From: Promethearchaeota archaeon
GTDB lineage: Archaea > Asgardarchaeota > Lokiarchaeia > Sigyniarchaeales > SOKP01
NCBI GenBank assembly: GCA_048938025.1
Contig: JBHLMP010000006.1
Coordinates: 23,316 to 87,315, forward strand
Length of the DNA: 64,000 nt
Direction of reading: 5' to 3'
Shown here in pieces: positions 1,285 through 51,641 of the stretch. The position numbers and the translations under genes were made by a program. Below the pieces are notes generated by a model. It had not been told where the DNA came from and made no database searches. It saw nothing but the letters and a program-made list of their open reading frames with translations. Within the stretch, counting starts at the first letter, position 1. Every line of letters begins with the position of its first letter.

Positions 1285-3390
1285 TTATAGCCAAGGCGGA
1301 ATCTGCATAGGTGCATCCACAATCCATTCCGGATAGATATAACCATTTGATGTAACAATTGATTTTGTTCCACCAGATTGCCATTGTACCCATAAAGCGA
1401 CAGAATAAATTGTCTCTGTAATTGGATCATACCCTTCAATTAAATCATGGTATATATTAAATGCAATATTACCTCCAGCTCCTTCAAATGGATTAGTTTT
1501 ATCTATAGTTTCTAATTGAGCTACAATATCATCAGAATCAATGGATTGTACTTTGTTAATCGCGTCTGACAGCATAAAAACAGAATCATAGGATCCTATT
1601 GCTGTATAAAAAGGATCCTTAGCCCATATTGCTGTATATGAATCCCACATTGGTATTGTTATACTTGTTTTATTAGTTCTTGTTGTTGATTGTACTACTA
1701 ATTGATATTTACATGCTCCTGCTGAATATTGCCAGTAATCTTCAAATTCAGACATATAATCAATCCCAGCAATCATAAAATCGGGTTGAAGAGCCTCATA
1801 TTGAGTCATCAATTTGATTCCACCTTGTGCTGAGATGAGAGGAAAAACGATTTGTGCTCCATCAGTGTGTAATTGGTATACATATCCAGTAAAATCTGCA
1901 GAAGTAGCTGTAATTGGATACGCAATTTCACTTACTATTGTAAAATTAAACCAAGGATTAATAGTTAACCCATAGTATCCATAAGGTACATAATAACCGT
2001 GTAAAATGTTTGACCAAGGTGTCGTCCATTCAAGATTTTCCCTTATAATTCCAACTTTAGTCACGTTTACGCCTAATGCTGCCTCCAAGGCAGGTTTAAG
2101 CGTTAAAGCATAAAATTCAACAATTTCCTTCGCTAAAGATGTAGAATTGATAGGCATTGTACGGAAACAATATTTATATTTAGCATAATCCATGGCAACA
2201 GTTGTACAGAATGAATCTGTAGATGCTCCTGTATTTATGAAAATTTTATGCTCGTCCATTACCGCTTCCCGATATGTCATTACTGCTTCTGTTCTATATC
2301 CACCAATGAAAAAATCAGGATCATGTTGAAGGATCAGATTCTCTGCTGCTAAGACTCCCTGACTAACATTTAATAAGGGAATAGCTTCGTAGGTATTTTC
2401 ACCTACAATTCCAAGATAGTAAGTACCATTGGGAAAAGTCGGATCCATAGAATTATAAATTAAAATACCTCCAGCTTCGTTTATCTGTCTTATAGCTAAA
2501 TATGATCCTTGAAATGTACCTTCACCCGATATATCAGTAAAATCAGCAAGGGTTCCAATCTTAATTATATGATCTTCAGGAGTATCAATTGGTGCCCCTG
2601 GGACAAATAAAACACCCGAGTATAAATAAGGAATATCTATGTTTACAATTTCACTATTAGTAGTCTCCTCATTACCAGCGTTGTCTATAGCATAGTATTC
2701 GATGGTGTGATTTCTTTTAGCATAACCCCCTAATGTGAATAACCCAGTATATGATGTCCATGGTCCATTATCTATTCGGTATTCGATGCTATCAACCCCT
2801 GAACCAGTACCATCATCTGCCAATAAAGTGAAGGTCGTGCTATTACTAACTATATTGGGCAAAGATTCAGGAGTATAAGATATAGAACTAGATGGGTTCA
2901 TACTGTCGATGATCAATTGATAAGAGCTTACATAAGCAATATTATTTGTTTCATCAGACTCACTTACATCATTATCACTATCGATAATCCAACCTATATA
3001 AAATATTCCATCTGGGATTCCAATATCTGGAAATATACCACTCCATGTTGAAAAACTATAATTTAAAGAAGATATTGATGGGATTGTATCAACTCCTAAC
3101 AAATAATCATCTACCGTAATAATAGTATTAGTTGAAACGTAATAGCTTACATTAAAGGCACCTGTTGATGATTGCCCAAGATTCTCGACATAACACCATA
3201 CTTGAATTATAGTAAAGCCGGGTTTAACTGCCGTTGGAAAAAAATCAGAATAAAGTGGTCCTCTATCTGTCAAATCTGGTGGACTTTTTTTTCCTTTTGG
3301 CAAAAAACTTACCCAGGTGATCGCAATAGAACTCACACCAATAATAATGGCTATTAAAATGGCTATTATTGTTCTTTTTTGTATTTTCAT
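1285..3390 (-). CDS. Membrane-anchored extracellular solute-binding protein (type I periplasmic-binding fold, Liv-like) with N-terminal CARDB and Ig-like modules
   Basis: N-terminal TM anchor. CARDB hallmark ending ESDETNN. Ig-like module SGVDSIEYRIDNGPWTSYTG...YYAIDNAGNEE. C-terminal ~430 aa resemble branched-chain amino-acid binding proteins (IKIGTLADFTD...QINEAGGI). Confidence 0.6.
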   Translation of the reverse strand: MKIQKRTIIAILIAIIIGVSSIAITWVSFLPKGKKSPPDLTDRGPLYSDFFPTAVKPGFTIIQVWCYVENLGQSSTGAFNVSYYVSTNTIITVDDYLLGVDTIPSISSLNYSFSTWSGIFPDIGIPDGIFYIGWIIDSDNDVSESDETNNIAYVSSYQLIIDSMNPSSSISYTPESLPNIVSNSTTFTLLADDGTGSGVDSIEYRIDNGPWTSYTGLFTLGGYAKRNHTIEYYAIDNAGNEETTNSEIVNIDIPYLYSGVLFVPGAPIDTPEDHIIKIGTLADFTDISGEGTFQGSYLAIRQINEAGGILIYNSMDPTFPNGTYYLGIVGENTYEAIPLLNVSQGVLAAENLILQHDPDFFIGGYRTEAVMTYREAVMDEHKIFINTGASTDSFCTTVAMDYAKYKYCFRTMPINSTSLAKEIVEFYALTLKPALEAALGVNVTKVGIIRENLEWTTPWSNILHGYYVPYGYYGLTINPWFNFTIVSEIAYPITATSADFTGYVYQLHTDGAQIVFPLISAQGGIKLMTQYEALQPDFMIAGIDYMSEFEDYWQYSAGACKYQLVVQSTTRTNKTSITIPMWDSYTAIWAKDPFYTAIGSYDSVFMLSDAINKVQSIDSDDIVAQLETIDKTNPFEGAGGNIAFNIYHDLIEGYDPITETIYSVALWVQWQSGGTKSIVTSNGYIYPEWIVDAPMQIPPWL

Positions 3391-3559
3391 TTTAATATTC
3401 TCCTAATTGGATATTCATTATAAATATATCAATAATAGATTTAAAGTTTTCCTTAAATCATAAATTTTTAGGGGAACTTCTAAATATTTCCTTTCTTGGA
3501 GGTGTTATGATATCTATAGCAAGATAATCACAATATTACCATTCTCTTTTTGTAGTATC

Positions 3560-3821
3560 TTTACTGGTGGATGAGGAAATTAAAAGATTTGTAAAATATT
3601 TATTATAAAAAGGATCTTGTTTATATCCTGATTTTGAAGTAAGAAACTGTTATTAAAGTAAAACTATTGAATTATGCTTCCACTGCGATGAATTTCCTTG
3701 TGAAAAAACTAATTTTGATTCTGATCTTAAGAGAAGGTGGATTCAAATGAATAATCAGATGAAAGAAATAGATATTAAATCATGCTATCAGAAGTCTAAA
3801 GATTTATCAAGGTATAGGTAA
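3560..3821 (+). pseudogene. Decayed duplicate of the 3' part of the DUF3795 gene
   Basis: nt 3612-3821 align base-for-base with 1039-1248. The core gatgaatttccttgtga...aggtggattcaaatgaataatcagatgaaagaa is nearly identical. The copy has in-frame stops and no start. Confidence 0.8.
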
Positions 3822-9986: not shown

Positions 9987-10089
9987 GTTTTATTTTTGGA
10001 TTTTAGCAAAACCTTATTACAAAAGAATACATACAATTCTTAATTGTTGCATTTTTAGCAAATGTACACAATTGTTTTAGGTTTTATCA

Positions 10090-10350
10090 ATGGCAAAAGC
10101 AAAAGGAACAGTAAAATGGTTTAATAGTAAAAAAGGCTATGGCTTTATTACTCCTGATGATGGTTCGAGTGATTTATTTGTTCACTATTCCACTATTCAA
10201 GCCGAAAGTGGCGATTTTAAGATAATTTATGAAGGGGATATAGTAGAATATGAAGTCACTCAAGGACAGAAAGGGCCACAAGCCAGCAATGTCGTAGTTA
10301 TTGAAAAAGGACCTCGACAGAGTTTTCATGGCCGGAAATCTTTTTATTAA
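10090..10350 (+). CDS. csp: Cold-shock domain protein (CspA family) with short basic C-terminal tail
   Basis: [15 protein letters not shown] (RNP1) and DLFVHY (RNP2). Confidence 0.9.
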
Positions 10351-10475
10351 TAAAATAGTTTATTAATTAAGAAAGAGAATAGGTAATAAAAATAAGGAAT
10401 TTTGGAAGATAGTAAATATGTGAGGAAAGATTTGTTAATTTCTTTTTAATATTTCTCTACGTCTGACAGGTTCCC

Positions 10476-10495
10476 TTTTTTTTTTTTATTTTTTT
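10476..10495 (+). terminator. T12-A-T7 tract downstream of csp
   Basis: Read directly. Lies ~125 nt after the csp stop, so the assignment to csp is tentative. Confidence 0.3.
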
Positions 10496-10567
10496 AACGC
10501 TCTAAATTGAAGCTAAGTAATAAAATTATTAAGAATAGTAGTGATTTATAATTAAAAATCATGATTT

Positions 10568-11242
10568 TTGTATAAAATGAGCCAGTTGAATGAGAATAAG
10601 ACATGGACGAGAGAACGAGTTGAAAGATATATCCAATCAACGGAGAAATTAATTAATTATAGATATAAACCATTTGCCAAGCAAGTACTGGATTCTATAA
10701 ATGAGTTTGGTATAGAAGGGATTCCAAAAATTTTAGATATTGGATGTGGGCCAGGCATTCTCTTATTTGAAATTAAGAAAATTATTCCTGACGTAAAGTT
10801 AGTTGGGGTTGATTCCTCAGAACAAATGTTAAATTTTGCCAAAGAGAAAGCAGAACACAATAATATTGATGAGCTTGAACTATTGAAAGGTTTGGCTGAA
10901 GATATTCCATTACCAAATGATGATATAGAGGTGGTTGTATGCCTAAATTGTCTTCATGATTTTAAGGATGCGAAACAGACAATAGAACAAGTATACCGAG
11001 TATTGCGGAGTGGAGGGATTTTTATTTTGAAAGATAAAAATGGTGCTTATCCTCGATGGAAAATGCGTTTACATTTTATTCCATTAATTCTTAGGACAGG
11101 TTTAAAGAGAGCTCGGGCTTATTTAAGAAGCGAGCCATTTTGGCTTGAACCGCATCAAGTATATGATTGGATGAGCCAATTAGGGTTTCAAGAGATTAGT
11201 GTTTCAAATAAACCTGATTATGTTATTATAGGAAAAAAATGA
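10568..11242 (+). CDS. Class I SAM-dependent methyltransferase
   Basis: Motif I LDIGCGPGIL, GVDSSEQM, LRSGGIFIL. The ATG at 10577 is a more likely start than the TTG at 10568. Confidence 0.75.
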   Translation: MYKMSQLNENKTWTRERVERYIQSTEKLINYRYKPFAKQVLDSINEFGIEGIPKILDIGCGPGILLFEIKKIIPDVKLVGVDSSEQMLNFAKEKAEHNNIDELELLKGLAEDIPLPNDDIEVVVCLNCLHDFKDAKQTIEQVYRVLRSGGIFILKDKNGAYPRWKMRLHFIPLILRTGLKRARAYLRSEPFWLEPHQVYDWMSQLGFQEISVSNKPDYVIIGKK

Positions 11243-12920: not shown

Positions 12921-12951
12921 ATCTTAATGGAGTTAAGATAATTTTTTTTTT
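12921..12951 (+). terminator. Hairpin (ATCTTAA-N5-TTAAGAT) followed by a T10 run
   Basis: Read directly. Begins 15 nt after the stop of 12382-12906. Confidence 0.5.
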
Positions 12952-12991
12952 ATCTCTTTTTATTTTTTTTTAAATAACAAAAGATATCTAC

Positions 12992-14242
12992 TTATCGCCA
13001 TTCAGTACCACAATGACCGCATTTATATTTATGACCATAAACTCGTGGATATGCAAATATTATATGAGTTTTATCAATTATTTCCCGAATGAGATCTTTG
13101 TTAGCATTTCCACATTTAGGACATCTACGCCTTCCCTCAGAACTTCCCTCTAAAATTATTTGTCCTTCTTTTTCTAGTTCAGGAGAGATGATTGATTTCA
13201 ATTCTTCTACCAAAGAATAAGAAGAAATAGCCTGTTCTGTTTCCTCAACATTTAGCTCTTGGGTATCTATTGTAATCTTTTCTTCCATCTTTAATGCAGG
13301 TTCCATTAATTGTTCAGTCTCAACTTTTAAAGGTTTTTGAGAGGGGACCTTAAGTTCTTCATGAGGTTGAGGAATTGCTACTTCCACTACTTTTTTACCT
13401 TTTTCTTTAAACCTTTTATTTTCATCCTCGAGAGCGACTACTTGTTCTTGTAAAATAGCGATTTCTTTTTCTAATTGTGCAATATCCGGTTTTTGCATCT
13501 TTAAAAAGTCAATGTTATTTCTTAATAAATTGGTTTCGTTTACCAATTCATGGATTTTTTCATTTTTATTAAGAATTAAATTTTCTAATCTATTAACTTC
13601 TTCCATCAAGTTTGCTATAGTATTACGAGTACTCTCAATGAACTCAACATCAGGTTTTTCTTTCTCTTTGAGTATCCTATTATTATCCTCTAATTCAGCA
13701 ATCATTGCTTCTAAATCTATAACTTCTTCCTCTAATTGTGCAATTGTAGCCAACTCAGTTTTTAAATCTCGGATATTATTTTTTAACACTCTATTTTCAT
13801 GTTCTAATTCAGAAGCTTGATTTTTTAATGGTTCAAGATTTTTCTCTAATCTATGGTACTCTTCTGTTAAATTTTCGATTTTTTTAGTATACTCTTTTAA
13901 AATCAGGGGATCCACTGTTTCACCTAAATTTTCTTTTTGTTTCGAAAATTCAAGATTTAAATTTTCAATTTTTTTTTGTAAAATTTCACTTTCATAATCT
14001 TTCTGAGCTAACTCTTTTCGCTGTGAAGAAACCATATTTTTTAAAATTGTAATTTCTTCTGATTCATTTAAACTATCGGCGGTAACTTTGCCACTTAATA
14101 AGGTTCGTGAATTCTGTTCTTCTAATTGAGCATTTAACCTATTAATCTCATTATTCAATTTTTCTATAATCTTTTCCAATTCTGCTCTGTTCCTTTCTTC
14201 TTCTTCAGCTTTATCAATTAAATCCTTTAAATTTTCGCTCAT
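12992..14242 (-). CDS. Long coiled-coil protein with C-terminal CxxC...CxxC zinc ribbon
   Basis: About 290 aa of heptad-rich E/K/L/N sequence with an internal ~52-aa duplication. C-terminus CPKCGN...CGHCG. Confidence 0.6.
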   Translation of the reverse strand: MSENLKDLIDKAEEEERNRAELEKIIEKLNNEINRLNAQLEEQNSRTLLSGKVTADSLNESEEITILKNMVSSQRKELAQKDYESEILQKKIENLNLEFSKQKENLGETVDPLILKEYTKKIENLTEEYHRLEKNLEPLKNQASELEHENRVLKNNIRDLKTELATIAQLEEEVIDLEAMIAELEDNNRILKEKEKPDVEFIESTRNTIANLMEEVNRLENLILNKNEKIHELVNETNLLRNNIDFLKMQKPDIAQLEKEIAILQEQVVALEDENKRFKEKGKKVVEVAIPQPHEELKVPSQKPLKVETEQLMEPALKMEEKITIDTQELNVEETEQAISSYSLVEELKSIISPELEKEGQIILEGSSEGRRRCPKCGNANKDLIREIIDKTHIIFAYPRVYGHKYKCGHCGTEWR

Positions 14243-14405
14243 CGTATTAAAATTTCCATAATTTTATTTAAACATTTCCAATTTTCTAGAAAGATAATGA
14301 AGTTCTAATTAAAAAATTTAAGGAGACTAGATTAAGAATAAAATAATATGAGCATTGCAGAAATCTAAAAAATAATTAATTAAATGTCATATTAATTTGG
14401 ATATC

Positions 14406-14441
14406 AAAGCTTTATAAATAATTAATTAAAGCTTTATAAAT
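14406..14441. promoter_or_regulatory. Tandem 14-bp direct repeat AAAGCTTTATAAAT (BRE/TATA-like), 22-bp period
   Basis: Copies at 14406-14419 and 14428-14441, in the divergent region between 12992-14242 (-) and 14518-15105 (+). Confidence 0.4.
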
Positions 14442-14517
14442 GTTTGAATATTTACTACTCTTACTTTAAGGTTAAATCTTACAATAAAAATAAAAAAATA
14501 AATGAAGGGTAATTAAA

Positions 14518-41996: not shown

Positions 41997-43205
41997 ATGT
42001 CAGAGAATAGTGAAAAAGAGATTATTATTAAAGATTTTTTTAAAAGTAATGTAATTTTCTCAGAATTAGATGAAGTTTTAAGATTAAAGCCAGAAACTAT
42101 GATTGGTATAGATAAAGTAAGTTCTGATAAATTAGTTGAACATAATATCAAAACTGTTGAAGATCTAGCCAATCTATCAGTTGATAATCTCCCTGAGATT
42201 GAAGATTTATTACCTAATATATTTAGTAAGTGGGTCAAAATAGCTCAAGTCATACAAAAAGCTGTAAAAGAACAGTTAAGACGTCATAAGAAGCTTTTAA
42301 TGATCGGCTTAGATGCAGCGGGTAAAACATCAATCCTAGCAATAGTTCAAGATAAATTCTCGATTATAAAATCCTTGTTACCAACTAGAGGTGTAAAAAG
42401 AGAGAAACTAGACTTTTTCGGTTACCCGATTATAAGCTGGGACCTCGGAGGCCAAATTCAATATCGTGAGAAGCTATACTTCAATAGACCAGAATTATTT
42501 TTCACCGAGGCTGACCTTCTTTTATATGTTATTGACAGTCAAGATTTAGAAAGATTAACAGAATCAGCTAATTATTTTCGGGAAGTTCTAAATTCCTTAA
42601 TAGATTTACATGAGCAACCAAAGATTTTAATAGTTCTTAGTAAAAGTGATCCAGACTTTCGTAAATCATTCCAATGGCAAAAAAATGTTGAAAGTATCAG
42701 AAATAAATTTGACAAAGTTGCCGATGAATATGAGCAATTCACTGTAGATTATTGTGATACATCAATATTTCAACCCACGACCATCTGGCAAATGTTTAGT
42801 ATTGCCTTGAAGAAAGTTTCTGAAACTTCTGAAATTATCGAAAATATTCTTGAAGATTTTACTAGTCAGGTTGAGGGGAAAGCATCAAGTTTAGTTTCGA
42901 TGGACGGATTAATTTTTGGCAGTTATACCAAAACTAGTACTGATGAGATGTTAGTAAATAATACAGCACTTCTATTGCAAACACTTTCGAATTTTTATAA
43001 TTCAATTGGTCTTATTAGAGAAAAAACAATAAGTCTTGATTTACCACTTAATGGGTTTACTATTCGGGGTGAAAAATTGTTTGAGTATTCAGAGCTTCAA
43101 ATACCTGTATATTTATGGCTGCTTTCGGAAAACCCAGAATTATTACGAGGTAAAATTGATTATTTTAGAACACAATTATTGCCTTTGATTAACTTGTTCA
43201 TCTGA
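41997..43205 (+). CDS. Arf-like small GTPase with N-terminal HhH-like segment and C-terminal roadblock/LC7-like domain
   Basis: G1 GLDAAGKTS (Arf-type), switch I LPTRG, G3 WDLGGQ, G4 SKSD. aa ~280-402 show an alpha-beta-beta-alpha-beta-beta-beta-alpha pattern (ASSLVSMDGLIFGSY...). Confidence 0.7.
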   Translation: MSENSEKEIIIKDFFKSNVIFSELDEVLRLKPETMIGIDKVSSDKLVEHNIKTVEDLANLSVDNLPEIEDLLPNIFSKWVKIAQVIQKAVKEQLRRHKKLLMIGLDAAGKTSILAIVQDKFSIIKSLLPTRGVKREKLDFFGYPIISWDLGGQIQYREKLYFNRPELFFTEADLLLYVIDSQDLERLTESANYFREVLNSLIDLHEQPKILIVLSKSDPDFRKSFQWQKNVESIRNKFDKVADEYEQFTVDYCDTSIFQPTTIWQMFSIALKKVSETSEIIENILEDFTSQVEGKASSLVSMDGLIFGSYTKTSTDEMLVNNTALLLQTLSNFYNSIGLIREKTISLDLPLNGFTIRGEKLFEYSELQIPVYLWLLSENPELLRGKIDYFRTQLLPLINLFI

Positions 43206-43242
43206 TTTCAACTTTTTTTTAAAATTATCTTACCATTTTAAT

Positions 43243-43455
43243 TTATTCTAATTTCTTATTAGCTGTAAGTAAATATTCATTGCACTTTTCCATCATCTCA
43301 ATTGCTTTATTCAAATCATCAACAATTGAATCTAAACCTTTACTTTTTGCAATATCGCGCCATTTCAAAAATGATTCTTTGTGAGAATCATTGTGATCTG
43401 CCCAATGTTTCAATAATTTAGATAATTTTAAAATATCCTTATCTTGTTTATCCAA
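43243..43455 (-). CDS. Hypothetical small helical protein with HxxxHxxxH motif
   Basis: 70 aa. Contains HWADHNDSH. Lies downstream of cdhA but is separated from it by a T-run. Confidence 0.4.
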   Translation of the reverse strand: MDKQDKDILKLSKLLKHWADHNDSHKESFLKWRDIAKSKGLDSIVDDLNKAIEMMEKCNEYLLTANKKLE

Positions 43456-43570
43456 ACAATCTCACAATTTGAAAACTAAAAATAATATTATAAAAATATT
43501 ATGTATTATACATTAAATTTTTGACTTAAACTTCCAAACTTAGATTAAACTCAATAAATAATGCAATTTT

Positions 43571-43580
43571 AAAAAAAAAA
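43571..43580 (-). terminator. T10 run (minus strand) downstream of cdhA
   Basis: An A10 run on the + strand, 24-33 nt beyond the cdhA stop at 43604. Confidence 0.45.
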
Positions 43581-43603
43581 GAAATATAAAAATTAAAAAT
43601 AAA

Positions 43604-45952
43604 TTATGTATGGCATAATCTCTGAAGGAGAGTTGGATCTATAATCTCTTTTGGTTTCCAGCCCCTTTCTTTTAGATATTCTACGATATCATCTTTCATG
43701 CTAATAGGAATATCTGCCTCTACCCTAATGAATTTTTCTAAATCATTTGGGAATTTAACGCCCTTATATTTGCGTTCTAAGTCAATCCAATGAGAAAGCT
43801 TTATCATTCTTCCTTTCGAATTATCTGCTGGTCTTAAACACATTTTAGCAGTTAAACAAATAGCTTGTTCAATGGTTTCAGCTGTAGTTAATAAGTGTTC
43901 TGGACCAGGTCCAACTAAATGATCAGGAGTTCCATCTCTTGCATTCCATACCCTCCAGCTATCCTCATCGTCAGATCTACCAATATACATTCTTCTATAT
44001 TCTGCTGAATGTGGTCCAACAATTGCTGGTATACCCATACCATTTGCACTACTAGCAATACTAGCTGCTTTTTGGCTCATTGCACCCCACGCAACCCCCA
44101 CAGCTCCAACTCTGTTTAAAATATAATCAGAAATCTCTTCATAATTACCCCGGAGTGGTCTTCGGGCGAAAATGTTAGCTATTTTGATTGCAGCTCCATT
44201 AATGTGAGGATTTGAAACACATGAACCTACATTGACTAAGCCTCCTCTATCAAAATCACCAGGATATCGGTCATATAATGTTTTACCTTCCTCATCTTTA
44301 ACAAGCCCTATATCCATTGCTCCACAGCCTGATACAACTACAATATAATTACGTTTACAAAATTCTTCTGCCATTAATGCCAATTCCTGAATTTCTTTAC
44401 CATAATTAGCACAGCCAATGATGGCAACAACTCCCGGAATTTCTCCTAAGACTACAGGAGCTCCAACATTCCTGATTTCAACATCTTGAATTGGTCCTCT
44501 CCCAACTCTTATATTAAACGTCTCATTTCTGATCTTTTCTCGTCCAGCATACATGAGCAGTGTGAGTGGGGATACGTTCTTCATACAATCGGCTTCACAC
44601 CTACCACAATCTAAGCAATGATCAAAAGCATCAGCAAGAACAGAAAAATCTCCTTCCTTAACTAATCTAATTCCTTCAACAAGAGGTAAATCATTTGGAC
44701 AATTTCTCTGGCAATTTCCACATCCATTACAATGATAAGCCATTTCAATACAACCCTGCTCTTCTGGAACAGCGCTTTTTCCAGCTCTAATTGGTTTTAC
44801 TTTAATAGCAGTTTCAACAGCAACTTGACCTGCTTTTATAGGATCAAGAATTAGTACTCCCTCTGCTTTTCCACTAACTAAATCATCTATAATCTCTTCT
44901 ACTGGATCATCTGTTCTATCAGGCAAACCATTCATATTTTTTTCATTTGTCGCTATAAAAGGAGCATTAACCAGTTTTGCTTGCTCATAACTTCTTAGAT
45001 TTACACATTGTTCATCAACCATAACAACATCTGCTAAACCTGAACGGATATAGTGCATTTGTCGAGAAAGTGAACCAACAACTTTAGCTCCATCGTAATA
45101 ACGAGTTAAATCTAGAGCTGTGCAGCAAATCGCACCAACATCTACTTTATCTGATAGATTTTTTTCTCTCATATAATCGACGAGTTCTATTCCAGGTGCT
45201 ACATTATGACCTATCATTAGGATTGTTGATTTGTTTTCAGTATCCATTGTCCCCATACCTAACTCTACAAGTGGGACATCTGCTTCTCCCATTGGAAAAC
45301 CATATGCTGCAATTTGTACAGCATCTGCAATTTCCATACCGACAGCATCAGCTAAACCTGCTAAAAACGATTTTGCCTCGTAATCCAAATAACTTGCTTC
45401 TTGACCGGTATGTCCTGCAGCTAATAAGTGTGTAATAGTATAATGTACCCATTCCATTGCGGTCTCTAAATCCTCTAACGTTTCAGGTTTCATACCAACA
45501 ATTAAACGTGTACATGGCATTTCAACTTCAATGTTAGTTCCATAATTAATAGGTACATTGCCATATTTTTCTTTTAACCAATGTAATAAGTGATCTCCAT
45601 GAGCGCTATGACATGATGCTCCAATACAACAAGCAATTTCTACAATTCTCGATTGTTGAGTCTCCATATTGATTCCACAGGCTCCTGTTCTGCCTTTTGA
45701 TAAGTTACATTTACCAAAAGTACAAAGACAACACATGTCACAAATGGGCATATAAAATGGCTTATACCTCTCCATTAATTTGAAAAACCAACTACGCAGT
45801 GTAGGAATATGTGGTTCAGGAGTAGGGCCCATAGGTTCCCATTCTGTTTCGTCTCCGTATGAAACCTTTCCAGTAGTCAACTCGAAACCTTTTATTGTAC
45901 CCAAGGGTCCTTTATAAGAGTCTATTTTGAGTTTTGCGCCTTTTTTACTCAT
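43604..45952 (-). CDS. cdhA: Acetyl-CoA decarbonylase/synthase complex alpha subunit (anaerobic CO dehydrogenase catalytic subunit)
   Basis: N-terminal CDMCCLCTFGKCNL...GACGI cluster. Two ferredoxin-type CxxCxxCxxxCP motifs. C-terminal CODH blocks. Confidence 0.9.
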   Translation of the reverse strand: MSKKGAKLKIDSYKGPLGTIKGFELTTGKVSYGDETEWEPMGPTPEPHIPTLRSWFFKLMERYKPFYMPICDMCCLCTFGKCNLSKGRTGACGINMETQQSRIVEIACCIGASCHSAHGDHLLHWLKEKYGNVPINYGTNIEVEMPCTRLIVGMKPETLEDLETAMEWVHYTITHLLAAGHTGQEASYLDYEAKSFLAGLADAVGMEIADAVQIAAYGFPMGEADVPLVELGMGTMDTENKSTILMIGHNVAPGIELVDYMREKNLSDKVDVGAICCTALDLTRYYDGAKVVGSLSRQMHYIRSGLADVVMVDEQCVNLRSYEQAKLVNAPFIATNEKNMNGLPDRTDDPVEEIIDDLVSGKAEGVLILDPIKAGQVAVETAIKVKPIRAGKSAVPEEQGCIEMAYHCNGCGNCQRNCPNDLPLVEGIRLVKEGDFSVLADAFDHCLDCGRCEADCMKNVSPLTLLMYAGREKIRNETFNIRVGRGPIQDVEIRNVGAPVVLGEIPGVVAIIGCANYGKEIQELALMAEEFCKRNYIVVVSGCGAMDIGLVKDEEGKTLYDRYPGDFDRGGLVNVGSCVSNPHINGAAIKIANIFARRPLRGNYEEISDYILNRVGAVGVAWGAMSQKAASIASSANGMGIPAIVGPHSAEYRRMYIGRSDDEDSWRVWNARDGTPDHLVGPGPEHLLTTAETIEQAICLTAKMCLRPADNSKGRMIKLSHWIDLERKYKGVKFPNDLEKFIRVEADIPISMKDDIVEYLKERGWKPKEIIDPTLLQRLCHT

Positions 45953-46096
45953 ATTTTATCATTTTTATTTATATAATTTTTTTATTATTACATATTAAAT
46001 CTAATAATTATTCAAATTATTGATTTTATTAAAGGTATTCTATGAAGAGAATAAAATTGTGAATTTAAAACCTATTTATTATAATTTAAAGCAAAA

Positions 46097-46139
46097 GAGT
46101 GTAAACTTTGTATAATTTATGAGTGTGAAATTTCACACT
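46097..46139. promoter_or_regulatory. Perfect 18-bp palindrome AGTGTGAAATTTCACACT plus an upstream direct half-site GAGTGTAAA (candidate operator)
   Basis: Read directly at 46122-46139 and 46097-46105, in the divergent cdhA / Rab-like GTPase intergenic region. Confidence 0.45.
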
Positions 46140-46318
46140 ACGCCTACTTATATTAAAATTTCTTACATCTACGATATGTTTAAATTCAAAAATAATAATT
46201 ATTAGAATTTAAAATGCAAATATATTAAAAGGAATTATTTTATTAATAGAGTTGAGGAATTCTAGAAAAATGAACCTACCATTCTTAATTCCAAACATGA
46301 GTCAATATAATAGTAAAA

Positions 46319-46858
46319 ATGAGCAGAGCCAAAAGTCCTTTTTATAAAATATGTATAGTAGGAGACACTGGAGTTGGAAAAACTACATTAATGCATCAAT
46401 ATTTAGATTATAGATTTTTAGCAAATATCAGATCCACTATTGGTTCAGATTTTTTTATAAAACATCTTCAATTACCCGAAGATCATCAATCATTTACACT
46501 TCAAATTTGGGACTTAGCTGGGCAACAACATTATAAATGGGTAAGAAATGCTTTTTATAAAGGAGCGAAAGGAATTGTTTATGTATTTGATCTAACTCGA
46601 AGAGACACATTTGAAAATATTCCAAATTGGAAAAGTGAGGTTGAAGATGTTATTGGAGTTGTACCAAATATGTTTGTAGGTAATAAATTGGACCTTATTG
46701 AATCTATAGGGAGATTAGTAACAGATGAAGAAACACAGAAAATAAAAGGTGAATTAAATTCTATTAGATACGTAGAAACAAGTGCAAAAAAGGGTTTTGG
46801 GGTAAAAGATATTTTTCTTAATTTAACAAGAGAAATTTACAGTTCATGTCGAAAATAG
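46319..46858 (+). CDS. Rab/Ras-like small GTPase
   Basis: G1 GDTGVGKT, G3 WDLAGQ, G4 GNKLD, G5 ETSAK. 179 aa. No CaaX box (ends SSCRK). Confidence 0.85.
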   Translation: MSRAKSPFYKICIVGDTGVGKTTLMHQYLDYRFLANIRSTIGSDFFIKHLQLPEDHQSFTLQIWDLAGQQHYKWVRNAFYKGAKGIVYVFDLTRRDTFENIPNWKSEVEDVIGVVPNMFVGNKLDLIESIGRLVTDEETQKIKGELNSIRYVETSAKKGFGVKDIFLNLTREIYSSCRK

Positions 46859-46920
46859 AGTGTAAAAATTCTCAACAATTGTCTAAACCATTCAATAGGT
46901 TTAAATTTATGAACATGACT

Positions 46921-47517
46921 TTAAAGGGTAGAGAGAAAATCAGAAACTGCTTCTTCTGACGGTTCTGGATCGACAACAGAACTATCTAGTTCTTCACCTA
47001 TTATATCAAATGTATATGTGCATTTATCAGCACCTAATAGAACACATTCAGATTCCCTTCCATCAACATCAATTTTTAAGATTTCAAATACCCCTTGGAA
47101 GATGCCTAAGTAAAGTAAGCACAGGTTTTTAGCCATAATGTTATCTTCTTCTTGAGATGCTAGAGGATCATTTACACCTATTTGGATTTTATTTTTTCCA
47201 AAGTGTGCTCTTAATTGTCCATAGCCCATTAATTCCATAGATTCAAGAATACCTAGAAAAACATCTTTTTTAGTAGCAATATTTTCAAGAGCCCAATCTT
47301 TATTGTAAAAGAATTTTTCCATAAAAGATCTTCCCAGGGTTTTTCCTACCCAAGTTAATATATCATCAGCATTTGTACCAGCAAATTCAGTGAATTCGAT
47401 TAAGTCAATAGGTCTTAACATTAATAAGCGCATATCTTTCTTTTTTTCGCCGAAAAATAGTTGTCCTAATTTCTCGTCAATCATTAGTTGTAATTCTTTT
47501 TTCAATCTTTTTGACAT
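46921..47517 (-). CDS. V4R-domain protein (TRAPP Bet3-like fold)
   Basis: 198 aa. LRPIDLIEF...GKTLGRSF and the C-terminal conserved Cys pair ECVLLGADKCTYTF are typical of V4R. Confidence 0.6.
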   Translation of the reverse strand: MSKRLKKELQLMIDEKLGQLFFGEKKKDMRLLMLRPIDLIEFTEFAGTNADDILTWVGKTLGRSFMEKFFYNKDWALENIATKKDVFLGILESMELMGYGQLRAHFGKNKIQIGVNDPLASQEEDNIMAKNLCLLYLGIFQGVFEILKIDVDGRESECVLLGADKCTYTFDIIGEELDSSVVDPEPSEEAVSDFLSTL

Positions 47518-47642
47518 AGCTTTTCCCTATTTAAGTATTTCATTAAGATTATTAGGAATTTATATAATAGAAATTTAAGTGTCTAGATATTTAAATTTAA
47601 TGTTAAAGTTAGTTGAAATCTAAAATTCAAATATTAGGATTA

Positions 47643-48698
47643 TTAAGAAGCGACCAAATTAAAAATTGTTTGGATTACAGCATCAAGATTATGTTTAGTC
47701 TTTACTGAAGTGAAAAGAAATGCCCAATCTCTATGTTTAATATCTTCAAAATTAAAAAAATCATATAATTCTTCTTTTAATTTCTCTAGTTGATTTTCCC
47801 TGCTTTTTTCTGAAGATTTAATTAAATCTATTTTATTACCCACGATCAATAAAGGAATACCGAACAAATCATCTCTATTCACAATATTCCAGAATTCTTT
47901 TTTTGATTCTTCAAATCGTATTTGGTTAGCTATATCGATCATAAATACAACAATATTTGAGTCTTGTAAGCCAATCAACCATTTTTTTCGAAAATTTTGT
48001 TGACCTGGCATATCCCAAAAAGCCAGTAACCCTTTTTCTTGTTTTTCAATATATTCAATATTGAATTTTCGAGTCGGAGCAAAGAAATTATCATTGAATT
48101 CACCTGTTTTTATTCTTCTTACAAGGGATGTCTTGCCAACTTCATCAATTCCAAATAAAAAGACTTTAATAAATAATTCTTGCTGGTAATGATAGACAAT
48201 TTTAGGAGGTTTTTCAATAATTTCATCCCCATATCTTCTAATATCAATGAACATCGAAATTAGCAAATTTTCTATTTCAATTTCATCATCAAAAGAATAT
48301 ACTGTTCCATTAATTAATAATTCACTCAATAATTCTTCAAAAATTTCTTTATAATCATAAGGATTATCTTCTTCATCAAAAATTAGACCAATAAGTATTT
48401 TTCCATTTATACAAGATGTGTATATATTTAAATCATTAACAATTTGTGCAACAGGCTTATCAATTTTATAATGATTTGATTTTTCAGTTAAATCAGGGTT
48501 ATAAATTGATAAATTATTATGGATATTATTCTTGTTATTTAGATTTGCCTGATCATGACCAGTAATAATCATATTAACAAGATTTTTGTCATTGATATTT
48601 ATAATTTCATTTGGATAGCTATAGATATTAAGATCTTTTAAGTCTTGAAATTTTTTCCCTTTAAATAGAAAAATGTTATGTAACAATGAAATTTCCAA
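47643..48698 (-). CDS. Arf-like small GTPase with ~165-aa N-terminal extension
   Basis: G1 GIDEVGKTS, switch I APTRK, G3 WDMPGQ, G4 GNKID. The N-terminal region has no recognised motif. Confidence 0.75.
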   Translation of the reverse strand: MEISLLHNIFLFKGKKFQDLKDLNIYSYPNEIININDKNLVNMIITGHDQANLNNKNNIHNNLSIYNPDLTEKSNHYKIDKPVAQIVNDLNIYTSCINGKILIGLIFDEEDNPYDYKEIFEELLSELLINGTVYSFDDEIEIENLLISMFIDIRRYGDEIIEKPPKIVYHYQQELFIKVFLFGIDEVGKTSLVRRIKTGEFNDNFFAPTRKFNIEYIEKQEKGLLAFWDMPGQQNFRKKWLIGLQDSNIVVFMIDIANQIRFEESKKEFWNIVNRDDLFGIPLLIVGNKIDLIKSSEKSRENQLEKLKEELYDFFNFEDIKHRDWAFLFTSVKTKHNLDAVIQTIFNLVAS

Positions 48699-48869
48699 AA
48701 ATTCTTAATTCCTATAAGTTTGAGAATAAAGCCTAATTAAAAAAAGTTTGGAATCTTGCCTAATTTATAACTTTTAAAGTTTTTGGCTTAATAATTCTAG
48801 GAAAGTGACTTAACTCCTTTAAAAAACCTTATTAATAGATGAATAAGAAAAATTCAATTTAGAATTGTC

Positions 48870-50291
48870 TTATTCTTTGCTATCTTCTTCAACATCTGGA
48901 GTTTCTTGTTTATTATCAGAAGTTTCTGTTTCTGATGGAACCTCCGATTGCGGAGTTGATTTTGATGCTACAGGTGTTCCACAAATAGGACATTTTGACC
49001 AACCTGGTCTTAAACCGTAACCGCATTTTGAGCATTCTTGCATATCCTCATCTGGTTTCCATTCTGGAATATCTAAACCACCTTGTCTTTTACGAGCAAG
49101 TTCTTGTAATTCATCTTCTGTCCAAAACTCCATACCCTCAGGTAAACTGGAACCTCTCTCCTCGGCAAATTTGGTTAATTCTTCTTCCGACCAAATGGGC
49201 ATATCAGGTTGAGTAGCCATTCTTTTTTGTGCTTCTTTTGCTAAATCCTCAGCTGTCCATGCTTTAAGCTCTTGACCTCCTGGAGTTCTTACTACACCTG
49301 GTTGTTGAGGAGAAATTTGACTAGGTGCCTCAGTACCCATAACGCCTCCACTAATAGAAGGTGCACTACAACACTCAGCAGAAAACTTTAAAAGTGCTTC
49401 AAAACATTTTGAGAAGTTATTTGGATCTTTCCCTTCATCACTAACTAACATTAATGTAGTTTTATCAGCTGGTTGAGGAATAGCAATACCACATATGGCA
49501 ATATCTGATTTAAGTCGCCCTGATTCTATACCAGAAGTGAGCTTTTCCATTGATTTTGTCAAATCATCATCGTTCATCAAAAAATCACAGATTGGATCTC
49601 CGTGTCTCTGGAAACTATCATGATATTTAGCTAGTTGAGTTCTTGTTATCGTTGAGTTAAGAGATCTAATAATAGCATCTACATACGAAAAAATTTGAGA
49701 CTTAGGACCTTTTTGAGATCCTTCTAGCTTATAACCACCTAAATCAAGAGCTCCCGTAATAGGAGCAAATAGAGATGTTTCATTCTTCATTTTACCATAG
49801 ATTATTGGTCTTGAAATAACACATTTGATTTCTCCGTAATAGGCAATAGTATCATCAAAAAATTGAACTTTTCCATCATAGGTAATTCGTGGAACACTTC
49901 GGAAAATGACATCAGCCCAAGGCATTTCTTTTACTGGAATTATTACATAACATGTTTTATCAATTAAATCGCGCAATTTTTTAATGAATTCTTTTAAATC
50001 TTTTTTAATATCTTGATAATCTTCTTCGTTTAACTCTTCTTCTGCATTTTTCTCAAATTCTTTAAATTTCTCTTCATTTTTCTTGAGATTTCCCCCAAAT
50101 GATTTAACTTCTCCAACAGTATTACCTTGTAAGATAGATGTTGCATTTTCTATAATTTTTTTTTGAAAATCGGATAAATCAGCCTCAGTTTCACTTGAAA
50201 TAAGATAATCCTCGATATTGAATTGGATTTTATTAATAAAAACTTCAAACAATTTCTGTTCTGACAATTCCTTTACCTTTTTTCTATGCAA
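48870..50291 (-). CDS. Hypothetical protein with triple W-[ST]-x-E-[DE]-L repeat and C-terminal zinc ribbon
   Basis: The repeats are KAWTAEDLAKEAQKR, PIWSEEELTKFAEER and EFWTEDELQELARKR (nt 49086-49265). They are followed by CSKCG...CPICG (nt 48975-49034) and an acidic tail. Confidence 0.5.
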   Translation of the reverse strand: MHRKKVKELSEQKLFEVFINKIQFNIEDYLISSETEADLSDFQKKIIENATSILQGNTVGEVKSFGGNLKKNEEKFKEFEKNAEEELNEEDYQDIKKDLKEFIKKLRDLIDKTCYVIIPVKEMPWADVIFRSVPRITYDGKVQFFDDTIAYYGEIKCVISRPIIYGKMKNETSLFAPITGALDLGGYKLEGSQKGPKSQIFSYVDAIIRSLNSTITRTQLAKYHDSFQRHGDPICDFLMNDDDLTKSMEKLTSGIESGRLKSDIAICGIAIPQPADKTTLMLVSDEGKDPNNFSKCFEALLKFSAECCSAPSISGGVMGTEAPSQISPQQPGVVRTPGGQELKAWTAEDLAKEAQKRMATQPDMPIWSEEELTKFAEERGSSLPEGMEFWTEDELQELARKRQGGLDIPEWKPDEDMQECSKCGYGLRPGWSKCPICGTPVASKSTPQSEVPSETETSDNKQETPDVEEDSKE

Positions 50292-50444: not shown

Positions 50445-51641
50445 TTAGCCCGTATAACATAAATTCCATGTAGGTTCATAATCATGAATAAGATTCATCA
50501 TAATATTATATGCTGCTGGCGTATAATAGTTATCAAGAGGAGGATAATCTCCATTCTCTCTAATCGCGAAATGCACATGTCCTAAGGAATCAAATTGTTG
50601 AAAATCACCAATAGGCCAACCTAGCATGATCCACTCTCCTATATTATCTAAGATATCTATTTTAGATAATGAAGTATTAACATCGTTCATATCACTTGTC
50701 CATAGCTCAAATATATATTCACATTGAATTATTTCATTAAATTGAATTGTTATATTTATAGCATAATTAGTTATAATTTCTAAACTATTTATTACTTGTA
50801 TTGATTTAACAAGTCCAGGTGCAGCAGTATACACCCTTCTATTGTCTTTAAAATAAAAATCAAATCCTAAATGTACTGACCCCCAAGGACAAGCAGTTGT
50901 ATTAGAATAGGTACGCGTTACATTATGAATATTAAGTCTTGAGGTAAAAGTAGTATTTACGTAATCTAATGGTGAGTTCTCATCGTAGCATAAATGTGGC
51001 CATTCAGGATGCCACATATGAACTAAACCCATCATTCTCTCATAAGCTGCTGGAGAATAGTATCTGTCAAGACGAGTACGTACATTATCCTCTATTACAT
51101 CAAAATGTATATGAGCCCCAGGACCAATCTGTAAAAATCTACCAATTTCCTGCCCAATCTCGACCCATTCTCCTACGGAACAATTTATTAATTGTTTTTG
51201 ATGCTCATGTTGGCTACTTTCATTAGTCCAAGGCTCAAAATTGTAATTTACATATACACTATTATTAAATCTTATAGTTACCTCAATCATATATCTATTT
51301 TCTGTAGTTTCGCCCCAATCTTTTTCTCGAATTATGCTTACTTGCCCAGGAGCTGCCGCCAAAACTTTTGAGTTGTTAATCAATGCAAAATCAAACCCCT
51401 CATGGGCTCTTGCCCATGGGCAGCTATTTGTGGAAGCCCAAGCACCATTAACAGCATAATTGTCGGACTCATTTTCAAAAATAACATCCATGTAATCTAA
51501 ACGATCCCATTCGTATCTTTCTCCAGGATCAAAAAACTCTTCTTCCCAAGGTGAATCTTCTAGAATTAGAGGTAATATGAAAAGTCCTGCCATAATTACT
51601 ATGGCAACTATAATAAGTGAAATGATACCTATTTTTTTCAT
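50445..51641 (-). CDS. Membrane-anchored protein with two tandem M23 (LytM-type) metallopeptidase-like domains
   Basis: N-terminal TM helix. Domain 1: AHEGFDF...APGQV...GAHIHFDV. Domain 2: VHLGFDF...APGLV...GHVHFAI. Both match the HxxxD and HxH motifs. Confidence 0.65.
   Translation of the reverse strand: MKKIGIISLIIVAIVIMAGLFILPLILEDSPWEEEFFDPGERYEWDRLDYMDVIFENESDNYAVNGAWASTNSCPWARAHEGFDFALINNSKVLAAAPGQVSIIREKDWGETTENRYMIEVTIRFNNSVYVNYNFEPWTNESSQHEHQKQLINCSVGEWVEIGQEIGRFLQIGPGAHIHFDVIEDNVRTRLDRYYSPAAYERMMGLVHMWHPEWPHLCYDENSPLDYVNTTFTSRLNIHNVTRTYSNTTACPWGSVHLGFDFYFKDNRRVYTAAPGLVKSIQVINSLEIITNYAINITIQFNEIIQCEYIFELWTSDMNDVNTSLSKIDILDNIGEWIMLGWPIGDFQQFDSLGHVHFAIRENGDYPPLDNYYTPAAYNIMMNLIHDYEPTWNLCYTG

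Follow-up and report, generated by a model that had tools for sequence, protein, structure and literature searches.

In a 64,000-nt stretch of contig JBHLMP010000006.1 from a Promethearchaeota archaeon (hereafter the window; G+C ~29%), the gene for a small V4R-family protein lies directly downstream of the gene for a long Arf-like GTPase. We found that these two genes and the gene upstream of them are a conserved trio, in the same order and on the same strand, across the Promethearchaeota, the NCBI name for Lokiarchaeota, from which all of the related loci come. The trio encodes a 473-aa Zn-ribbon protein, a GTPase in which a predicted longin-like N-terminal domain (N-domain) is followed by an Arf-family G domain, and the V4R protein, and the genes flanking the trio are variable. 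The explanation that we consider best, which we hold tentatively and at slightly less than even confidence, is that V4R works with the longin-like–Arf GTPase as a regulatory or sensor subunit. The trio looks like a specific, Lokiarchaeota-wide pairing of V4R with a longin-like–Arl-like GTPase, accompanied by an uncharacterised Zn-ribbon protein, and it provides three defined proteins for asking whether a partnership of Bet3-fold, longin and GTPase modules predates eukaryotes.

Gene order around the V4R gene

An earlier reading of the window from its letters alone (the sequence-only reading) had described the V4R gene as sandwiched between a Rab-like and an Arf-like GTPase gene. The three open reading frames (ORFs) and the motifs quoted for them are real. 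The Rab-like ORF at 46319-46858 on the plus strand (179 aa) has GDTGVGKT, WDLAGQ, NKLD and ETSAK, the V4R ORF at 46921-47517 on the minus strand (198 aa) contains ECVLLGADKCTYTF, and the Arf-like ORF at 47643-48698 on the minus strand (351 aa) has GIDEVGKTS, APT, WDMPGQ and NKID after about 175 non-GTPase residues. The proposed Ras and Arf identities also held up in Pfam, with Ras at 7.7e-45 and 152.8 bits on the Rab-like ORF and Arf at 2.1e-28 on residues 175-347 of the long ORF. The V4R gene shares its strand with the Arf-like gene and begins 125 nt beyond the end of it, and the Rab-like gene is convergent on V4R, the two stop codons being 62 nt apart. The window has three Ras-superfamily genes only, all of them inside 41997-48698.

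For the comparison across genomes we mapped the window proteins onto 80 loci anchored on V4R, counting loci with enough flank, and we used metagenome contigs anchored on the N-domain of the GTPase as an independent check of linkage. V4R immediately follows a same-strand Arf-like gene in 72/75 genome loci, across a gap of 77-197 nt that is uninterrupted in all 72, and in 55/61 metagenome loci it is likewise the gene directly downstream of the GTPase gene. Among the 56 metagenome loci with both genes the junction is interrupted once, which is the only break in about 130 loci overall: in L127 a Rab-like gene at 3277-3789, 31% identical to the window Rab-like protein, is inserted between the GTPase gene and V4R and is co-directional with them. 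Immediately before the GTPase gene comes the gene for the 473-aa Zn-ribbon protein, in 67/71 genome loci and 64/65 metagenome loci. On the other side of the trio, the gap between V4R and the next syntenic gene, cdhA, has a median of 298 nt, reaches 3124 nt and exceeds 400 nt in 26 of the 62 loci, and the genes inserted there are varied. The main argument for a partnership between V4R and the GTPase is this difference between an intact junction and variable flanks.

The adjacency of GTPase and V4R genes that the sequence-only reading had proposed looking for in Asgard genomes is conserved in these loci on the Arf side, whereas on the Rab side it is not. A Rab-like gene is found beside V4R in about 8 of 160 loci and in three arrangements: convergent (the window, L001 and L084), co-directional with about 52% identity (L014, L016, L026, L033 and L152), and, in L127, as the different Rab-like gene between the GTPase gene and V4R described above. 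A gene that adjoins V4R in so few loci is no conserved partner; it has been inserted sporadically and belongs to the variable content of the V4R–cdhA slot, which holds many different genes. As a description of the locus the Rab–V4R–Arf sandwich is misleading, since only its Arf half is strongly conserved and the Rab half is incidental.

These counts bear directly on the reading for which the sandwich was first proposed, in which the locus is a forerunner of the Rab–TRAPP relationship and V4R is a proto-TRAPP guanine nucleotide exchange factor (GEF) for the flanking Rab-like GTPase, or perhaps for both flanking GTPases. That reading can draw on the similarity of the V4R fold to Bet3/TRAPPC3 (template modelling (TM) scores of 0.55-0.63 on the target), on the closeness of the Rab-like gene, whose nearest solved relatives are a Thorarchaeota Rab (7ezb, 1.7e-35), Rab12, Rab1a, Rab8a and Rab14, and on the fact that Rab-like genes have come to lie beside V4R in three different ways, but it is without comparative support, the window gene is convergent, and no Bet3 hidden Markov model (HMM) matches the V4R family. 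In eukaryotic TRAPP, moreover, the Rab-contacting exchange surface consists of longin subunits and the Bet3 C-terminus inside a multi-subunit core, and is not made by a Bet3 dimer alone. It is unlikely that V4R is a GEF for the adjacent Rab-like protein, and we regard this version of the locus, taken with its extension to both GTPases, as very improbable.

The position of cdhA suggests another reading, in which V4R serves the downstream cdhA product as a sensor of CO, redox state or cofactor or as a chaperone and the GTPase is irrelevant. In most loci cdhA follows V4R on the same strand, often within ~300 nt, the V4R/H-NOX fold class includes gas and redox sensors, and most of the V4R family matches a methanogen output domain, MetOD1 (below). 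However, the slot between V4R and cdhA is the one often broken by unrelated genes, L063 and L070 have cdhA on the other strand, the partial correlation between V4R and cdhA in the co-variation test described below is 0.003, and the DNA upstream of cdhA does not form a conserved unit with V4R. We consider a role in the service of cdhA improbable.

The V4R protein and its fold

The predicted layout of the V4R protein (46921-47517, minus strand) is an N-terminal β-hairpin arm, an α/β core of V4R/Bet3 type, a putative Zn site, an acidic linker and a C-terminal VS[ED]FLSTL helix. We base this assignment on the Pfam V4R model, invariant residues, an AlphaFold2 (AF2) model and Foldseek. Taken singly, the window protein matches Pfam V4R (PF02830) with E=2e-5 and 25 bits, under the curated cut-off of 31. 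We found 612 homologues of 195-198 aa, and among the best-scoring 120 listed, each at least 66% identical to the window protein, 120/120 match PF02830 at E<=0.01 (best 1.3e-9), while none of the 120 matches TRAPP_Bet3 (PF04051) at E<=0.01. MetOD1 (PF18546) is matched by 95 of these 120. The V4R-type nature of the middle gene, as first proposed, is therefore borne out, and the match to TRAPP_Bet3 that had been suggested as a check is not found. There is also a weak NCBIfam match between the window protein and the V4R domain of MsvR (E=1.4e-6). A profile of the family, searched against PDB sequences at E<=10, finds no TRAPPC3, Thorarchaeota TRAPPC3, Bet3, PoxR or DmpR, and therefore there is no sequence-level tie to solved structures. 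In that search ThsA matched at E ~0.04, which we consider spurious.

The AF2 model of the V4R protein (mean predicted local distance difference test score, pLDDT, 78; predicted TM score, pTM, 0.74) has the N-terminal β-hairpin arm, the α/β core and the C-terminal helix. When it is compared with the PDB by Foldseek, the sensor domains of DmpR, MopR and PoxR come out on top with 205-210 aligned columns, and DmpR/MopR/PoxR, H-NOX and Bet3/TRAPPC3 are all found within an E range of 7e-6 to 1e-4. The Bet3/TRAPPC3 matches (TM score 0.55-0.63 on the target) include 2pwn (E=1.9e-5, TM 0.58), 7b6d_A (TM 0.63), 1sz7, 2cfh and 2j3w. The model has the α/β fold of Bet3 type, with four helices on a four-stranded sheet, and DmpR/MopR/PoxR and H-NOX score equally well or better. 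Telling Bet3 from a sensor V4R domain or H-NOX by Foldseek is ruled out, given that the E ranges overlap. The fold class common to V4R and Bet3 is confirmed for the model of the window protein, including the match to Bet3/TRAPPC3 anticipated by the sequence-only reading. We assign the protein to the V4R family by its sequence and to the V4R/Bet3/H-NOX class by its predicted fold, and because the Bet3 HMM test failed it should not be filed as a TRAPPC3.

Four residues of the core resemble a known metal site. Family alignments show no variation at C133, E155 and C158 and at least 90% conservation at C166, giving the pattern Cys…Glu-x2-Cys-x7-Cys (C133…E155-x2-C158-x7-C166, spacing 22/3/8). The zinc ligands of DmpR are C151, E172, C177 and C185 (DmpR paper), and the pattern in the window protein is of this DmpR type, making it a putative Zn site. 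Zinc is bound by Thorarchaeota TRAPPC3 and by PoxR, and not by mouse TRAPPC3 (Tran et al. 2024, PMC10933270), in which the DmpR-type pattern is missing, and the putative site is also a point of likeness to the Asgard TRAPPC3 proteins of that study. The acidic linker and the C-terminal VS[ED]FLSTL motif are conserved across the family.

In its HMM match, its Cys…Glu…Cys-x7-Cys pattern and its arm and α/β core, the window family is like the V4R domains of DmpR/MopR/PoxR and MsvR. This likeness favours a rival reading, that of linkage without partnership, in which V4R is an autonomous Zn-containing sensor or carrier for small molecules or redox (like MsvR or DmpR/PoxR) and its adjacency to the GTPase gene is inherited gene order. 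The sequence of the protein is that of V4R/MetOD1, weakly MsvR-like and not Bet3, its zinc-site pattern is of the DmpR type, and Tran et al. (PMC10933270) conclude that Asgard TRAPP/V4R proteins most likely bind ligands. Unlike DmpR/MopR/PoxR and MsvR, however, the window protein is a stand-alone V4R protein of 198 aa with no AAA+ or DNA-binding output domain. Because it has neither a DNA-binding nor an enzymatic output domain, V4R as a sensor would need a partner. It further differs from the DmpR-type sensors in its acidic tail ending in the VS[ED]FLSTL helix, and in being tied to a small-GTPase gene and not to catabolic operons. The other points on which this rival turns are weighed in the last section.

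In one metagenome-assembled genome (L077:10001-10623) the V4R gene was matched in two pieces, 10001-10144 and 10180-10623, which points to a frameshift, a small insertion or a misassembly.

The GTPase and the Zn-ribbon protein

The Arf-like gene encodes two domains. The Arl8-like G domain, at residues ~176-351 (47643-48173, minus strand), is recognised by the Pfam Arf model (PF00025) with 99.4 bits against a cut-off of 22.3. Its nearest solved relatives by sequence are Arl8A and Arl8B (E=2e-20), and its best fold match in Foldseek is Arl8b (8jc5_A, TM score 0.89 on the target), and it also matches the SRPRB and Gtr1_RagA models of Pfam. The G domain is intact: the P-loop GxxxxGK[ST], the switch-I T209, WDxPGQ with the catalytic Gln, and NKxD are invariant in 50 homologues. 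We did not find the N-terminal amphipathic helix or the often myristoylated Gly2 of Arf proteins; the protein begins MLHNIF, and a folded domain of ~160 aa and a low-confidence linker (residues 159-173) precede the G domain. The true start of the gene is likely to be the TTG at 48686, given that this TTG is conserved in nearly all orthologues, that the orthologues, too, begin MLHNIF and that several of these have an in-frame stop just upstream.

The N-domain (48219-48686, minus strand) has invariant DNPYDY and FIDxRRxGDE segments, and in the AF2 model its elements follow the order β-β-α-β-β-β-α-α (E6-13, E24-28, H38-56, E83-87, E90-97, E101-107, H113-128 and H139-160, with an extra short helix at 17-22), which is the longin topology. 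It also agrees with the longin arrangement described by Tran et al. (PMC10933270), where the N-terminal helix is absent and there are two C-terminal helices. In Pfam searches with four N-domains at E<=10 nothing was matched, longin models included, and a PDB profile search gave no meaningful match, the alcohol dehydrogenases that it listed being at chance level only. The Foldseek list for the full-length model is filled by G-domain matches. Since no Pfam model or solved sequence matches the N-domain, the AF2 model, which is of moderate confidence with a pLDDT of 71 overall and ~60-85 in the N-domain, is the sole basis for calling it longin-like. The arginines R154 and R155 are invariant, and one may speculate that they could act like the Arg fingers of longin GTPase-activating proteins (GAPs).

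The N-domain family is small. A profile search of 1.84 billion representative sequences gave only 32 clusters, and all nine of the distant full-length relatives that were scanned have the domain N-terminal to an Arf domain. Longin–Arf fusions have been reported in Asgard archaea, Lokiarchaeota among them (Tran et al. 2024, Fig. 1f, PMC10933270; Vargová et al. 2025, PMC11914678), and the window GTPase is like these in combining a longin-like N-domain with an Arf-family G domain. It is unlike the others in that its N-domain family is narrow and missed by Pfam longin models, and only this subfamily is linked to V4R. In the distant relatives from L082 (5001-7797) and L081 (396-2352), N-domain–Arf GTPases of 454-466 aa are followed by a gene of ~467 aa with a Peptidase_C69-like product, which in L082 shares 8 nt with the end of the GTPase gene and matches Peptidase_C69 weakly, and in L083 the neighbour is an unknown gene of 238 aa. 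The gene found in both L081 and L082 suggests that their N-domain–Arf subfamily has a different conserved partner.

Pairings of a longin- or roadblock-type platform with an Arf/Rag-like GTPase are known from SRα SRX–SRβ, MglB–MglA, FLCN–FNIP, GATOR1 and C9orf72–SMCR8, and the predicted architecture of the window GTPase is like these. Unlike SRX–SRβ, MglB–MglA and the longin GAP complexes, the window platform is fused in cis, and no sequence homology to them was detected.

The third member of the trio, the 473-aa Zn-ribbon protein (48870-50291, minus strand, exact start uncertain), was delimited by its zinc-ribbon Pfam matches, alignment and synteny. Its predicted layout is a helical N-terminus, a conserved core with the motifs IPVKEMPW, YQRHGDPICDF and CFEALLRFSA, a P/Q-rich linker, four Trp-acidic repeats, a C4 zinc ribbon and an acidic tail. 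The repeats, of ~22 aa each, occupy residues ~340-415 just before the zinc ribbon and read 'GQELKxWTAEELAxEAQKR', 'WTEEELxKFAxERG', 'EVWTEEELQELAxKRQ' and 'IPEWKPDE'. W345, W367, W390 and W411 are invariant, and the repeats look like short binding motifs or a helical repeat. Beyond the zinc ribbon nothing was recognised by Pfam on 25 orthologues, by NCBIfam or in the PDB, and by these searches the protein is novel.

Possible partnership, promoter-like DNA and neighbouring genes

The DNA upstream of the trio genes includes two conserved promoter-like regions. Upstream of V4R, at 47562-47602 on the minus strand, is a conserved 41-nt element in which TTAAATTT occurs twice, at a distance of 22 nt, ahead of a TATA-like TATTATAT. 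Of 74 intergenic regions between the Arf-like gene and V4R, 52 have the consensus with <=8 mismatches, no other place in any locus comes closer than 13 mismatches, and the element is unique in the window. We infer that it is the V4R gene's own promoter, and an operator, at which some regulator would act, may form part of it. Ahead of the GTPase gene, at 48722-48786 on the minus strand, CCAAAAACTTTAAAAG is followed by AGATTCCAAACTTTTTTTAA and then by TTTATT, with a core resembling a B recognition element (BRE) and TATA box, ATTCCAAACTTTTTTTAA…TTTTATT. The ~100 nt before the TTG start (48686-48790), with their BRE/TATA-like blocks and a T7 run, are unusually conserved, also between loci with proteins only 55-65% identical, and the region upstream of cdhA, examined as a control, has no comparable conservation. 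As Rfam matched nothing here and no consensus RNA structure emerged, we set aside an RNA element and read the conservation as promoter DNA. From these elements we infer that the trio genes have separate conserved promoters.

For co-variation we used a mirror-tree on 44 loci with cdhA and the Rag-like gene as proxies for the phylogeny, which is a weak test. The GTPase and the 473-aa Zn-ribbon protein co-vary beyond phylogeny (partial r = 0.53), which points to the Zn-ribbon protein as the closer partner of the GTPase.

Several observations weigh against V4R as a subunit working with the GTPase. The same mirror-tree gives a partial correlation of -0.03 between V4R and the GTPase, that is, no excess co-evolution. 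Since the GTPase and V4R genes have their own promoter-like elements and the gaps are longer than 75 nt, the trio is a linked cluster for which an operon or co-transcription is not established. Downstream of the trio cdhA, a 70-aa gene and a Rag/Gtr1-like GTPase gene are syntenic as well, and since a single phylum supplies all of the loci, some of the conservation is due to common descent. The two genes also occur apart. In the sub-lineage of L086 and L089 the Zn-ribbon and GTPase genes are kept and V4R is absent before cdhA, and the GTPase–cdhA interval of ~1 kb (L086:3634-4660, L089:1850-2700) has no detectable V4R remnant, only ORFs of 75-94 aa. In L055, L058 and L059, V4R proteins 57-61% identical to that of the window are encoded in another context with no GTPase gene, and they are missing the C-terminal motif. 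None of the distant N-domain–Arf relatives (L081, L082 and L083) is beside V4R, and the hhalign probability of their neighbours to V4R is <1%. The moderate confidence of the model behind the longin-like call belongs here too.

The same facts on separate occurrence, synteny, co-evolution and the V4R gene's own conserved promoter-like element favour the autonomous sensor described above. Against it are the lack of an output domain and the GTPase–V4R junction itself, which is uninterrupted in all 72 linked genome loci and broken once in the metagenome set while the neighbouring V4R–cdhA junction is broken in 26/62. We consider the autonomous sensor somewhat unlikely.

If V4R does work with the longin-like–Arf GTPase, we would expect it to be a Zn-stabilised homodimer with a ligand pocket, as are DmpR/PoxR and Thorarchaeota TRAPPC3. 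It might dock on the longin-like platform, much as the longin pair of the TRAPP core has Bet3-family subunits on either side (Tran et al. 2024, PMC10933270). Through this contact the nucleotide state or the location of the fused G domain, which is competent for catalysis, could be adjusted to a small hydrophobic ligand or to the redox state. The likelier direct binding partner or effector of the GTPase would be the Zn-ribbon protein, with its Trp-acidic repeats. The predicted longin topology of the N-domain strengthens the TRAPP analogy because the TRAPP core is itself built of longin and Bet3-family subunits, and TRAPP-like coupling is plausible. Like the TRAPP core (Bet3/TRAPPC3 with Bet5/Trs23, the GEF for Rab1/Ypt1), the trio has a protein of the Bet3 fold class, with a longin-type domain and a small GTPase encoded alongside. 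Unlike the TRAPP core, the linked GTPase is Arl8/Arf-like rather than Rab, the longin-like domain belongs to the same polypeptide as the G domain, and the cluster has neither other TRAPP subunits nor a Bet3 HMM match. The strongest form of the analogy is a minimal 'proto-TRAPP' in which a Zn-V4R dimer on the longin-like domain controls the fused G domain, perhaps gated by ligand or redox, with the Zn-ribbon protein as effector. We think this form unlikely, and if true it would be the first archaeal case of Bet3-fold and longin modules acting together on a small GTPase. To our knowledge, there is no earlier case of a Bet3-fold protein tied to a particular archaeal GTPase.

V4R was proposed as the ancestor of Bet3 by Podar 2008 (PMC2253512). 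Tran et al. 2024 (PMC10933270) solved structures of Thorarchaeota TRAPPC3-like proteins, which are Zn-bound and dimeric with cavities, modelled V4R/TRAPPC3 proteins of the cultured Lokiarchaeon Prometheoarchaeum syntrophicum MK-D1, and reported a longin–TRAPPC3 fusion in Heimdallarchaeota. The sequence-only reading had known of no biochemical characterisation of a GTPase-plus-regulator module. As regards the TRAPPC3-like proteins that needs amending in view of these structures, and as regards a GTPase complex it stands, none being described there. The same authors noted that the GTPase genes of MK-D1 do not generally share operons with genes for roadblock, longin or TRAPPC3 proteins, which means that the genome does not reveal the partners, and the trio looks like an exception to this generalisation. 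Given that this study was the only one that a full-text search found to join Asgard, V4R, GTPase and longin, the trio is apparently unreported.

The Rab-like GTPase (46319-46858, plus strand) is lineage-specific and outside the core cluster. It has no C-terminal prenylation motif of the CC, CXC or CAAX type, ending in …EIYSSCRK with a single Cys at -3.

Further along are the genes that are syntenic with the trio in many loci. The cdhA gene (43604-45952, minus strand) encodes the alpha subunit of carbon monoxide dehydrogenase/acetyl-CoA synthase (CODH/ACS; TIGR00314, 1076 bits), and no other cdh genes adjoin it. It is followed by a conserved 70-aa ORF of unknown function (43243-43455, minus strand), which co-occurs with cdhA in most loci. 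The Rag-like GTPase (41997-43205, plus strand, 402 aa) has a Gtr1/RagA G domain (Pfam 6.1e-22, the model covering the C-terminal region too) and an N-terminal helix-hairpin-helix-like segment with a weak match to the NusA C-terminal repeat, and most loci have it in synteny with the cluster, at identities of 58-85%.

At one of the loci with V4R in another context, L059, a gene at 12945-14444 on the minus strand encodes a 499-aa protein whose Arf/Rag-like G domain is preceded by an N-terminal domain and extended at the C-terminus; the gene is 2.4 kb from V4R and on the opposite strand. Upstream of the cluster in the window, and in some other loci only, is a gene (50445-51641, minus strand) for a 398-aa protein whose N-terminal segment resembles a membrane anchor and which has an M23 peptidase domain (Pfam 3.5e-10); by eye, a second M23-like half seems to come after it.

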